Shown: one piece after another, positions 12,314-15,454 of the stretch | How the letters are laid out: each line of letters starts with the position of its first letter | How positions within the stretch are numbered: position 1 is the stretch's first letter | NCBI GenBank assembly: GCA_026625185.1 | Contig: CP113000.1 | Location: 1,245,622-1,277,621, forward strand | Source: Thermodesulfobacteriota bacterium | GTDB taxonomy: Bacteria > Desulfobacterota > WTBG01 > JAGOGO01 | Reading direction: 5' to 3' | DNA: 32,000 nucleotides | The notes under the pieces: model-generated | Database searches by the model: none | Seen by the model: the letters and a program-made list of their open reading frames with translations, nothing else | Told to the model about the DNA's origin: nothing | Made by a program: the position numbers and the translations under genes

Positions 12314-12371
12314 TCATTCCTTCCTTTGAATTTCAATGTGTTACAACTCTTAAGGTGGTAAAAATCCTTTG

Positions 12372-12753
12372 TCAATCCTTTGTCAGGCCGTGCATAAGCA
12401 TTGAGTCCCGGAGGTCTTCGGGATCTCCAATAATATACCTTTCCAAAGCTTTGTTGGTTGAATGTCTGGTTGCTTCTCTTGCTAGTTCAGCATCGAGAGT
12501 ATTTTTAAGGTCGGTTGCAGTTGAGTGCTTAGTCCCTGGATAGAGAGACACCCCTTCAATTTCTTCTTAACTTCAACCCCCTTTATCTTTTGGTAGCATT
12601 CTTTAAACCCACTTTTCATGGCGTTAAGCTTATCCTTCCTATATTCTTCAAGAGAAGGGGTTGCTCCTTTGTTTTGCCTTTCATCACTCCCTTAAACTGC
12701 TTGATTTCTTGCGGTAAGAGACCTTGTTTTGTTACTAAAAAATATTTTTTCAT
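12372..12753 (-). pseudogene. tyrosine recombinase (phage-integrase family) remnant, C-terminal catalytic part only, disrupted
   Basis: Minus-strand translation gives ...LLLKNIGRISLTP*KSGFKECYQKIKGVEVKKKLKG, then a frameshift, then VSLYPGTKHSTATDLKNTLDAELAREATRHSTNKALERYIIGD. This follows the H-x-x-R...H...Y catalytic-tail pattern (KHSTAT, TRHST, ERY). It has an in-frame stop and a frameshift and lacks the N-terminal two-thirds. It sits 59 nt from the tRNA-Leu 3' end. Confidence 0.6.
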
Positions 12754-12989
12754 ACCCAAATTTAAGCGGTGTAACTAATGCTCTCAACCAAAAAATAGGG
12801 TGTTTTTTTGTTTAAAATACGTATTTCACCTTATTTTTATTTTATGAATAAAGGCTTATTTTTAATTTAATTGGTGACTATACCCTGATTAATGGCCGTA
12901 TGGTGGAGAAGTGAGGGGATCCGGCCAGCTCTTCTATTTTGGAAAAGCCTCAAGATAATTTCGAGAGTCCATAGGACTACTCCTTCTGG

Positions 12990-13027
12990 ATATGGCCGGA
13001 TTACTTATTGTCCGGCCATATTTTTTC
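12990..13027 (+). terminator. strong rho-independent terminator with no annotated gene upstream
   Basis: Perfect 11-bp stem ATATGGCCGGA (12990-13000) / TCCGGCCATAT (13011-13021), a 10-nt loop, then a TTTTTT run. Confidence 0.6.
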
Positions 13028-13212
13028 CCATTATTTCCATGACACAATCTCCTTTCTGCAAAAGACAAAAGCCCGGTCAGAATCACCCCACGCGAAACCT
13101 AACCAGGCTTTTAATCTTCCGCCGAAGCGGAAAAACGTTATATTTTTTGAGTACCTGGGGTTTTCATTTAAATGATCAATTTTAAAAAAAATCTTTTTTA
13201 CCGCCTTTCATC

Positions 13213-13695
13213 ATGGGTAAACTCGAAAAAAAAAAGCATTTAAAAAGCGGGCTCCGGGTAGTTTCGCTCCTTGAGGCCTCCAAAGGAATGCTTGTCTTGC
13301 TTACCGGCTTTGGGTTGCTGGCATTAATTCACAAGGACCTTCACCTTGCTGCCGAACAGCTGGTCCGGCACCTTCACTTAAATCCAGCTAATCATTATCC
13401 CCGGATTTTTATTGATCTTGCCAATCACCTGACCTCAGGAGAAATTTGGGAAATGGCCTTTGCAGCTTTTATCTACTCCTCGGTTCGCTTCGTTGAAGCT
13501 TTCGGCCTATGGCTGGGCCAGCAGTGGGCTAAATGGTTCGGTTTTCTTTCTGCGGGTTTGTATATTCCTATCGAACTATTTGAATTGACACGTGGGGTAA
13601 CTTGGCCTACGTTAACTGTAATTATCGTCAATGCAGCGATTGTTGGGTATCTTGCTTATGCTTTATATCAATCAAGGCGAAAAACAACGATATAA
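13213..13695 (+). CDS. DUF2127-like small membrane protein
   Basis: 160 aa with about 4 TM segments. The N-terminal LRVVSLLEASKGMLVLLTGFGLLAL and the C-terminal helix ending in a basic tail resemble DUF2127 proteins as I recall them. The family call is tentative. Confidence 0.55.
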   Translation: MGKLEKKKHLKSGLRVVSLLEASKGMLVLLTGFGLLALIHKDLHLAAEQLVRHLHLNPANHYPRIFIDLANHLTSGEIWEMAFAAFIYSSVRFVEAFGLWLGQQWAKWFGFLSAGLYIPIELFELTRGVTWPTLTVIIVNAAIVGYLAYALYQSRRKTTI

Positions 13696-13725
13696 TTACT
13701 CAAGACCAAAGCAGAAATAGAAAAC

Positions 13726-13748
13726 CCCTCCCGATTTCTCGGGAAGGG
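13726..13748 (+). terminator. terminator-like GC hairpin after the DUF2127 gene (no clear U-tract)
   Basis: CCCTCCCGA-TTTC-TCGGGA(A)GGG, 30 nt after the stop codon. The downstream sequence is not T-rich, so the function is uncertain. Confidence 0.3.
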
Positions 13749-14058
13749 TTGCCTTGAGGATGAGGGGAAAAATGAGGAGGTTGAGAAGGGGTTTCTTCTC
13801 TTTTCTCGTTTGTTATATTTTTTATAAAATTTTTACTTGCTGTCAATAGGAGGATCACTTCATTTTGATCGGGAAAATTCCCAGGGGGTAGGGATTTTTC
13901 CTAACGTAATAAAAACACCAGCAAAGGATGGGGCCCGTTACGGTGCCAGCCTATTGCCTCTGACCCCCGGTATTTAATAAACTGTTTTTTTAAAATTAAG
14001 AAATTCGAAAAATTAACTTACGAAAATTAGTTCACCGTGTTACTTCTAAGGATCGTTA

Positions 14059-14241
14059 CTATTCTTGAAGAGTAAACCGATGGTACCACCCCTCCCTTCT
14101 CCAAAAACTTAACCTGGGAAATGCTCCGTAGGGATAATGCATTCTTAAAAAAACCTCAAACGATCGTTCTTGTTCTAAATTAGAAAAAAGATTGCCTTGT
14201 GGCTCGGATTTATTAGACTCCATTGCTTCTTTTTCTGTCAT
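14059..14241 (-). CDS. hypothetical small protein (60 aa)
   Basis: AGGAG lies 7 nt upstream of ATG 14241 (MTEKEAMESNKSEPQG...). I recognise no family. The longer track start at 14274 lacks an RBS. Confidence 0.3.
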   Translation of the reverse strand: MTEKEAMESNKSEPQGNLFSNLEQERSFEVFLRMHYPYGAFPRLSFWRREGWYHRFTLQE

Positions 14242-14415
14242 CGCATAACTCCTAACCTGCCTTGTTGGCAACATTTTTTAAAGGGAAATCGATTTTTCCT
14301 AATTCTTTTGTGTATCAATTTACCTACTGAATTTTAAATCATCTATAGGGTGTTTTGTGTATTTTATGTTCAAAATTCCATTATTTTAAAATTCTACAAA
14401 AGTAAGCAAAATTGT

Positions 14416-14444
14416 TTGCATTAAATTTAAAACCTCAGTATGAT
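14416..14444 (+). promoter_or_regulatory. candidate sigma70 promoter upstream of the alpha/beta hydrolase
   Basis: TTGCAT (14416-14421), a 17-nt spacer, then TATGAT (14439-14444), about 110 nt upstream of ATG 14555. Confidence 0.3.
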
Positions 14445-14554
14445 TTCTAAGATAAAATTTTAATTGAATTTTAGGTTGTTATGGTTTAATTTGGGGGAAA
14501 TGAGATCGCCGAGCTAATATCGAGAAATCAAAACCGTAACGGGAGCGAAAGACT

Positions 14555-15277
14555 ATGATTCAGTTCGTCTTGGTGCATGGTGCGTGGCACGGGGGCTGGT
14601 GCTGGCGTCGTGTAGCCGATGTTCTCAGGGCTCGCGGGCACCGGGTTTTCGCGCCCAGCCTCACGGGAGTGGGGGATCGCGCGCATCTCTTCTCCAAAGA
14701 AATTTCAATGCAGACTCATGTGGACGACATCCTTTCCGTGGTTGAAACTGAGGAATTGAGGGACTTCGTTCTGGTTGGACATAGCTATGGAGGCTTCGTG
14801 ATCTCCGGAGTCGCTGACACACTCCGAGAGCGCGTGTCTCACTATGTTTACTTGGATGCTAGTGTTCCACCCGAAATGTCACCAGGCGCATCCTTCAGCT
14901 GGGCCGACTTTAATCCTCCCGAGGCACGTGAAGAACGATTGAAGTCGGTTCAAGAACAGGGTAAGGGTGCGGCACTCCCTCCACCTCCGCCCAGTGCATT
15001 CGCTGTGACCAACCCTGCGGACGTCGCCTGGCTGCAGCGGCAATTGCGGCCTATGCCGGTTGGGACCTATATCGGAGCCTTTACCTTCAAGAGCTCCGGG
15101 AGCAATGGATTGAAGCGCACCTACATTGCTTCAACCAAACCCCCCTATGCTTTGCTCGCCTCTACCCGTAACCGTATAAAGGGTGACCATACCTGGTCGT
15201 TCACGACAATCGAGGCAGGGCACGACTCAATGGTTACCGCCCCTGACGAGCTGGCTTCTTTGTTAATGGTGGCCTGA
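14555..15277 (+). CDS. alpha/beta hydrolase, SABP2 / methylesterase / hydroxynitrile-lyase-like subfamily
   Basis: N-terminal FVLVHGAWHGGWCW motif, nucleophile elbow GHSYGG, C-terminal GHDSM (catalytic His context). It is much more GC-rich than its flanks. Confidence 0.85.
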   Translation: MIQFVLVHGAWHGGWCWRRVADVLRARGHRVFAPSLTGVGDRAHLFSKEISMQTHVDDILSVVETEELRDFVLVGHSYGGFVISGVADTLRERVSHYVYLDASVPPEMSPGASFSWADFNPPEAREERLKSVQEQGKGAALPPPPPSAFAVTNPADVAWLQRQLRPMPVGTYIGAFTFKSSGSNGLKRTYIASTKPPYALLASTRNRIKGDHTWSFTTIEAGHDSMVTAPDELASLLMVA

Positions 15278-15454
15278 AACCCATCCTGTTGAGTCCGCCA
15301 TAGACCGGTATCAAACTTTTGCATGCAGCGTACCGGCCAACAGCGTCCCTTCGCGGTGCTGCTTGGACAGCCGCTGATTCAAGACCTTATACAGAAAAAA
15401 AAAGTGAATGCACATAAAATTAAAAAATAATTCTTAAAAATTTAGGAGGTAAAT

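Follow-up and report, generated by a model that had tools for sequence, protein, structure and literature searches.

The window considered here is a stretch of 32,000 nucleotides of contig CP113000.1 (assembly GCA_026625185.1) from a Thermodesulfobacteriota bacterium. The subject of this analysis is a degraded integrase gene that abuts its tRNA-Leu(GAG), together with the DNA that lies beyond. ARAGORN detects a single tRNA in the 32 kb, tRNA-Leu(GAG), on the plus strand at 12231-12315; it is the putative integration target, and it closes a conserved block of genes, DHQS-gap-pgk-tpiA-secG, that is found with the same tRNA in all relatives. An Rfam scan of positions 1-32000 at gathering thresholds gives zero matches, the tRNA included, despite the canonical tRNA-Leu reported by ARAGORN; apparently, the tRNA family is left out or overlooked in the Rfam output. 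At the first base past the tRNA, and convergent with it, begins the 3'-terminal remnant of a tyrosine integrase gene (int; 12316-12563, minus strand), which amounts to ~85 codons of a phage-type integrase of ~400 amino acids and is delimited by tblastn, by a family profile and by alignment with a related metagenomic contig, L090.

The part of the remnant that is still open is a 59-residue open reading frame (ORF) at 12372-12551 on the minus strand. Its sequence (SLYPGTKHSTAT ... TRHSTNKALERY) resembles box II of the tyrosine recombinases, and the motifs of that region, LYPGTKHS ... RHST ... RY, are kept in the remnant: LYPGTKHS is encoded at 12524-12547 (minus strand), the His (RHST) and the Tyr (ERY) are present, and a Lys occupies the Arg II position. 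Arg I, the Lys-beta hairpin and the DNA-binding domains are absent: this is a fragment and not a full integrase gene.

Direct searches with this sequence are silent. The 59-residue ORF has no Pfam match at E<=1, its best PHROGs match is an 'integrase' family at a non-significant E=0.18, tblastn of the tail finds nothing in 50,697 phage records, nor does a profile search with it among the PDB sequences, and a word-indexed protein search retrieves, besides the ORF, just two short relatives. The lack of any significant direct Pfam, PHROGs, PDB or phage match favors the idea that the similarity is due to chance and that nothing ever integrated here. Against it, a HMMER search of 1.8 billion representative proteins, for which the query was a three-sequence alignment of the ORF and two homologues, yields 333 proteins at E<=1e-3; many are 380-430 residues long and match at their extreme C-terminus, with E-values of 5e-18 to 1e-12 for the full-length integrases. 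In tblastn, all 45 full-length members of the family (45/45) match the window at 12405-12563, over the same 156 nt (best E=1.4e-14, 58% identity), while a profile built from these 45 members matches the window with its positions 314-366 of 392 only, at E=2e-21. The position and orientation of the remnant relative to the tRNA are, moreover, the same as in relatives. Chance similarity has a negligible probability and is already refuted by the HMMER, tblastn and profile matches. The assignment to PF00589 is transitive: the tail matches the family at E=2e-21, and family members P0015 (1.2e-13) and P0020 (7.3e-07) match PF00589.

The lesions of the gene are best read from L090, a contig of 1.5 kb that shares 79% nucleotide identity with window positions 12262-12562 and in which a 1-nt indel is visible. 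The ORF of L090 (P0005) reads ...LNAYAGPDKGLTKDF...LKFKGKNDAEGGI and stops within tRNA-derived sequence; its counterpart in the window, ...LNAYARPDKGLTKDFYHLKSCNTLKFKGRNDAEGG..., lies in another frame than the 59-residue ORF. It follows from this alignment and from the frame shift at 12406/12407 that the 56 nt between the tRNA and the stop codon, seemingly a spacer, are integrase coding sequence, and that the ancestral ORF entered the 3' end of the tRNA. Two lesions are thus seen: the gene is cut short at its 5' end near 12563, and one nucleotide is missing at 12406/12407.

A preliminary description of this DNA, made from its letters alone, had recognized a minus-strand integrase catalytic tail beside tRNA-Leu(GAG), and ARAGORN, tblastn and the profile bear this out. 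It placed the tail at 12372-12753, with one internal stop and one frameshift, 59 nt after the tRNA. The real span is 12316-12563 and the lesions are those given above; the distance of 59 nt holds to the last sense codon (56 nt to the stop), the supposed gap being itself int sequence. The extension over 12564-12753 is rejected, as it has no profile match at E<=100 and its segments 'FFSNKT' and 'KGKTKEQPLLL' come in the wrong order for the family. More widely, the family profile run over 12316-14600 in all frames, at E<=100 and with filters off, has no further match besides the region 12405-12563.

The 5' end of the remnant calls for a separate remark. Integrase homology is lost at nearly the same codon in the window (~12563) and in L090 (~560-580), just upstream of 'IEGV', and the flanks beyond this point differ. 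A truncation at 'IEGV' shared by several relatives was considered and dropped: the end of P0004 is a contig-edge artefact, its frame being open to base 3 of contig L091, and P0003 extends upstream with in-frame stops, which leaves only the pair formed by the window and L090.

The geometry of int and tRNA recurs at related loci. In L090, the int tail overlaps half of a tRNA-Leu(GAG) (L090:826-880); ARAGORN finds no whole tRNA in this contig, only the part from the anticodon loop to the 3' end. A MerR/HTH_17 gene lies past the half-tRNA and a DUF6675 gene on the int side. Half-tRNA and tail together have the look of a displaced copy of an attachment (att) site, and the nucleotide alignments with L090 would place the att core in the window at 12262-12314 (plus strand), between the anticodon loop and the tRNA 3' end. 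The MerR/HTH_17 gene beyond the half-tRNA suggests a tandem (accretion) arrangement. On contig L091, the int ORF and a convergent tRNA-Pro (CGG) share 20 nt (L091:334-409), and on L081-L084 24 nt separate a decayed int tail, located beside a DndB/radical-SAM island, from a convergent tRNA-Ala (CGC; L081:6322-6397). Finally, L108, whose TpiA is 77% identical to that of the window, has ~60 nt of the same integrase tail left after its tRNA-Leu. Set against the ~250 bp of the window, this shows that decay has shortened the remnants of this integrase family to unequal lengths. The site is a recurrent hotspot.

The family behind the remnant contains members that pass the Pfam Phage_integrase threshold (PF00589), among them P0015 and P0020, and some carry SAM-like N-terminal domains. 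Alignment of P0015 with XerA and XerD equates GT[R/K]HS with LRHxFA, the Arg II motif, and GHST ... RY with GHS ... Y. The Lys found at the Arg II position of the remnant is shared by 20 of the 45 full-length members and by 55 of 139 motif-bearing matches, with K and R both occurring across the motif variants LYGGT[KR]HS and LYPGT[KR]H[ST]. Among the members scanned, those of the K type go undetected by Pfam PF00589, while R-type members pass its threshold. The members flagged for the Arg II/Lys site are P0006, P0007, P0012 and L103:7029-8267. Regarding genomic context, P0007, the best full-length match, sits between lysozyme/tail (lysis/tail) genes and a UvrD-helicase early region, and the 412-residue K-type member on L103 occupies the extreme end of a 42.6-kb IMG/VR contig. 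By analogy with these phage contexts, the donor of the window's remnant was most likely a temperate phage. Viral contigs scanned for the tRNA-Leu/int junction pattern gave no match.

Nearer relatives of the window were found with a protein search and with contig look-ups. The layout of the window recurs on contigs whose SecG is identical, and no polymorphism is seen within the species. The congeners (L092-L097 and L107) have core genes with 87-90% nucleotide identity over up to 8.9 kb upstream of the tRNA, gap reaching 97% amino-acid identity. In these congeners, which represent five contig lineages, all similarity to the window ends at 12314, the tRNA end, and the L107 contig stops at exactly that base. 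What follows tRNA-Leu is unlike in every lineage compared: RecJ, SLT and others in L092, an acyltransferase in L093/L094, UbiD, LarA and a lactate permease in L095, Band_7 and an AP endonuclease in L108, and a cation efflux protein and an FAA hydrolase in L098. No integrase tail follows tRNA-Leu in the closest congeners, and no relative has any of the window genes of 12.3-31 kb in the ~9 kb that follow its tRNA-Leu. The relatives thus lack the window's gene order and the integrase similarity is significant, the two points on which the preliminary description had staked the idea of an integrated element.

Within the congeners themselves, L092 and L093/L094 have an identical TpiA and 99.9% nucleotide identity, followed by complete divergence ~900 bp past tRNA-Leu; on the L093 side of this divergence, the sequence reads like a transposase fragment (...ILIAWGFLEDGSRELIGVSLGNQESYN). 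A scan of GTDB contigs with TpiA gives, among the matches listed, no relative above 62% identity. The best of these, L001, has a truncated integrase tail of another type beside its tRNA-Leu (L001:8256-8636; PF00589 E=8.8e-12), and an apparent P4-like integrase, as read from its sequence, lies beside tRNA-Leu at L007:6364-6993. In several Desulfobacterales, contigs end at or just past this tRNA (L002, L035, L042, L063, L067), as does L107. The secG-linked tRNA-Leu(GAG) is a lineage-wide hypervariable hotspot of integration and rearrangement in the Thermodesulfobacteriota/Desulfobacterales.

The locus is an ordinary decayed integration scar at this hypervariable tRNA hotspot, and there is a good probability that the scar is functionless and was left by a temperate phage or phage-like element that once resided in tRNA-Leu(GAG) and was later lost, leaving a dead int tail of 250 bp. 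In the sequence of events proposed, such an element would have integrated into tRNA-Leu(GAG) using an att core that spans the anticodon loop to the tRNA 3' end. Its integrase would have been a tyrosine integrase of ~400 residues, composed of an N-terminal Cys/His-rich region, a SAM-like domain and a catalytic domain, and encoded at the edge of the element with its last codons running into the tRNA-derived core. Given this edge position, int would have come to lie tail-to-tail with the regenerated tRNA after integration. Later deletion and rearrangement would have stripped int of its first ~310 codons and taken away whatever else the element contained, along with the distal att repeat (attR), lost by deletion or inversion, so that the dead tail at 12316-12563, with one further frameshift, would be the remainder.

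Several observations weigh against this account. No relative has a simple 'empty site' that continues into the genes found downstream in the window, so the ancestral state is not reconstructable and chromosomal rearrangement is not separable from island turnover. No phage gene relic is detectable past 12563: a six-frame Pfam scan of the spacers at 12540-13230 and 13690-14570 reveals no phage or mobile-element relic, and blastn of 12316-14554 against phage records returns nothing. The near-shared 5' truncation of the window and L090 is not predicted by purely random deletion (n=2; L108 differs). Lastly, the window holds no attR or displaced tRNA fragment, so that the extent of the former element is not measurable. 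No direct repeat of the tRNA 3' end is found in the 32 kb with <=3 mismatches over 27 nt, and the longest exact match to this end is 10 nt, the same as in shuffled sequence, in agreement with the earlier remark that no convincing repeat could be seen. Searches for direct and inverted repeats that might mark att or MITE-like (miniature inverted-repeat transposable element) boundaries retrieve only short AT-rich chance families.

Apart from these searches, a 14-nt exact direct repeat (ATTTCAATGTGTTA) occurs at 12330-12343, in the integrase tail/spacer, and at 11723-11736, in the tpiA-secG intergenic region; shuffled sequence gives repeats of 9-11 nt. The congeners have an indel of ~110 nt near 11712, by the copy at 11723-11736.

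The near-shared truncation also bears on whether the tail was kept because it serves a function, either as an attL arm or docking site for elements of the same family, in the manner of a cis-mobilizable element (CIME), or because the 59-residue ORF is a functional small protein. Some features fit this: ~250 bp, about the size of an att arm, are kept in both the window and L090, the end of another element, with the MerR/HTH_17 gene, was apparently inserted in L090 between the tRNA and the old tail, and the site has been reused by several integrase types. A function is nonetheless very improbable, as the frame is broken by the 1-nt deletion, L108 keeps only ~60 nt and the closest congeners have no tail, the window has no second att site, and the shared-boundary argument relies on two cases. 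A broader proposal, which is quite doubtful, is that the family forms an uncharacterised phage clade whose int ORF ends in the att core, in which ~45% of the members have Lys for the supposedly invariant Arg II, and whose ~250-bp tail may persist as a reusable arm or docking site; the hint for the reusable arm comes from the near-identical truncation in the window and L090 and from the tandem-type arrangement in L090.

Beyond the scar, the interval 12564-15435 starts with AT-rich non-coding DNA (12564-13212, GC 0.37), identified by composition and devoid of family-HMM, Pfam, relative or phage matches. It harbors an orphan intrinsic terminator on the plus strand at 12988-13027, with a 14-bp stem (hairpin 12988-13021) and a U-run (folding energy dG -22.3 kcal/mol, z -5.9), and no same-strand gene upstream. 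The next gene encodes a DUF2127 membrane protein (13213-13695, plus strand; Pfam E=3.8e-43) with a native-like composition (G+C content at third codon positions, GC3, 0.43; z -0.5); its 90%-identity cluster has three members, at least two of them on contigs of the same species. A strong hairpin with a U-rich tail at 13723-13750 (minus strand; dG -24, z -4.3) is likely the terminator of leftward transcription from a small ORF at 14059-14274 (minus strand), which is called as a gene in public annotations, is 60-71 residues long, has no family match and lies among spacers with a GC of 0.28-0.39. The last gene encodes an esterase-like alpha/beta hydrolase (14555-15277, plus strand; Pfam Abhydrolase_6 E=8.8e-25). 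Its GC3 of 0.60 (z=+2.0) is the maximum of the window, and two other window genes are close to it. The AT-rich stretch, the orphan terminator and the identities of the DUF2127 protein and the hydrolase had all been recognized correctly in the preliminary description; the hydrolase, called compositionally foreign there, does deviate, if only modestly.

The origin of the hydrolase is informative. Its nearest plasmid-borne relatives are <=50% identical and come from high-GC taxa, and a homologue, P0278, is 89% identical, carries a twin-arginine translocation (TAT) signal and is found in the context hydrolase-STAS (112 aa)-Lactamase_B; the sample from which P0278 originates also holds a ~90% congener. 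Homology between the two proteins starts at FVLVHG (14564), with no trace of a signal peptide upstream in the window: the window's hydrolase is without the 33-residue TAT signal of P0278 and starts at a new ATG three codons before the homology. A breakpoint is therefore probable at the 5' end of the hydrolase (~14564), and comparison of the two sequences suggests that the window's copy is a relocated, truncated version of a genus-level gene.

The right end of the interval is defined by L101, a metagenomic relative of the 405-residue STAS protein (STAS405). This contig is 89% identical at the nucleotide level to the window at 15436-17408, which covers STAS405 and an ABC fusion gene, and directly upstream it encodes the C-terminus of a Sua5/YciO/YrdC (TsaC) protein. 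Since L101 has tsaC there instead, the junction 15435/15436 is a breakpoint; the right boundary had been given as unclear, with an end at 15400 close to the real position. A protein search with the 72-residue TsaC fragment of L101 returned no candidates.

With both ends in hand, the segment 12316-15435 could be regarded as a single decayed genomic island of which the DUF2127 gene, the small ORF and the hydrolase are the surviving cargo. The interval is indeed missing from both comparators, the tRNA-Leu flanks of the congeners and the STAS flank of L101, its AT-rich spacers and GC-rich hydrolase make a mosaic composition, and it has an orphan terminator. This remains an unlikely explanation in view of the lack of a distal att repeat in the window, the native composition of the DUF2127 gene, the occurrence of the 89%-identical hydrolase homologue, with its TAT signal, in a different, non-tRNA context, and spacers without relics of mobile-element proteins. 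What fills 12564-15435 is a patchwork specific to this lineage, with three or more breakpoints (~12563, ~14564 and 15436) besides the one at the tRNA end and no intact cargo module, and 12316-12563 is the sole part assignable to a mobile element. Of the fossil genomic island put forward initially, an element once integrated at this site is upheld by the int tail and by the break at the tRNA end, while the genes that follow are not shown to be its cargo.

The same description raised, as speculation, an older and larger island of 12.3-26.2 kb with the STAS/ABC/partner-switch locus as cargo. At the far end of this segment lies a patch of mobile-element debris of mixed strands (25448-26230): a 23S-IVP-like fragment (minus strand), a Peptidase_M78/ImmA pseudogene and an IS1-family tail (both plus strand). 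The pseudogene (ImmA/IrrE, PF06114; 25591-26098) scores 24.3 bits against a cutoff of 22, has the HExxH motif as HELGH and is split by a frameshift in an A-run. The transposase tail (~26100-26230) is matched by tblastn at E=9e-7 with 93% coverage of a 40-residue query, over genes annotated as IS1 family transposase; only the C-terminal ~40 residues are left, with an internal stop. Both pieces of debris, reported earlier at 25.6-26.2 kb, are therefore real, and this, along with the absence of any window gene of 12.3-31 kb in the ~9 kb that follow tRNA-Leu in the relatives, favors the larger island. Yet the STAS405 and ABC fusion genes are 89% identical to L101 at the nucleotide level, which matches the core divergence (90%), the locus is flanked in L101 by the housekeeping gene tsaC, all seven genes of the locus have a GC3 within about one standard deviation of the window mean, and no att repeat is found near 26.2 kb. 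Divergence in step with the core genome and native GC3 point to vertical descent and make the larger island highly unlikely; they argue for a chromosomal STAS/ABC partner-switching locus that is not island cargo. The debris at 25.4-26.2 kb is separate from the tRNA-Leu scar, no link between them being supported.

Two neighboring genes deserve mention. A single ORF at 16704-20462 (plus strand) encodes 1252 residues in which, according to Pfam, a BPD_transp_2 ABC permease domain is fused to repeated ABC_sub_bind periplasmic-binding domains; the 405-residue STAS protein and an ABC ATPase lie on either side, and a partner-switch set of SpoIIE phosphatase, HATPase kinase and STAS is nearby. The gene pyrF (OMP decarboxylase; 26227-26979, minus strand), with a GC3 of 0.235 (z=-3.4), is the most atypical of the window; it adjoins the ImmA/IS1 debris and a 0.9-kb spacer with a GC of 0.30, and may be a xenologous replacement.

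For annotation, what is called a 59-residue 'hypothetical protein' beside tRNA-Leu is a fragment of an integrase pseudogene, the STAS/ABC locus is best treated as chromosomal, and assemblies tend to break at the hypervariable tRNA-Leu(GAG) that follows secG. The sole item of wider interest is a phage integrase clade that, from its sequences, appears to tolerate Lys at the Arg II position.

Among known systems, CIMEs, described in the ICESt1/ICESt3 literature, are deletion derivatives of integrated elements that keep both att sites. The scar resembles them, and other island remnants devoid of an integrase, as a deletion derivative whose att-proximal end is kept, and differs in having no second att site in the window.

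A parallel is provided by the tRNA-targeted prophages and islands mapped by Islander (PMC4383910): attP is recombined by a tyrosine integrase with the 3' portion of a tRNA gene (tDNA), which the island makes whole again, and a displaced piece of the tRNA is left as a marker at the other end. By the standards of that work, the window has an int remnant beside the tDNA and a segment that is absent in relatives with a break at the tDNA; no displaced tRNA fragment marks a distal end within the 32 kb, and the putative cargo is of uneven composition, with a GC3 z of +2.0 for the hydrolase and -0.5 for DUF2127 beside AT-rich spacers. As in Islander islands, int is at the edge by the regenerated tRNA, the att core would run from the anticodon loop to the 3' end, homology breaks at the tRNA end, and a displaced half-tRNA is seen, here in the related locus L090. 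Unlike in those islands, only ~20% of int is left and neither the displaced fragment nor any other part of the element survives, so that the locus would not count as a mapped island.

At the protein level, the family is related to the Xer/lambda-type tyrosine recombinases (PF00589; XerD, PDB ID 1a0p; XerA, PDB ID 5hxy), with which its box II aligns residue for residue (RHxxA ... GHS ... Y). It departs from XerD and XerA by an N-terminal Cys/His-rich region of ~80 residues, by LY(P/G)GT instead of HxL before Arg II, and by the Lys that takes the place of Arg II in 20/45 full-length members as well as in the remnant of the window.

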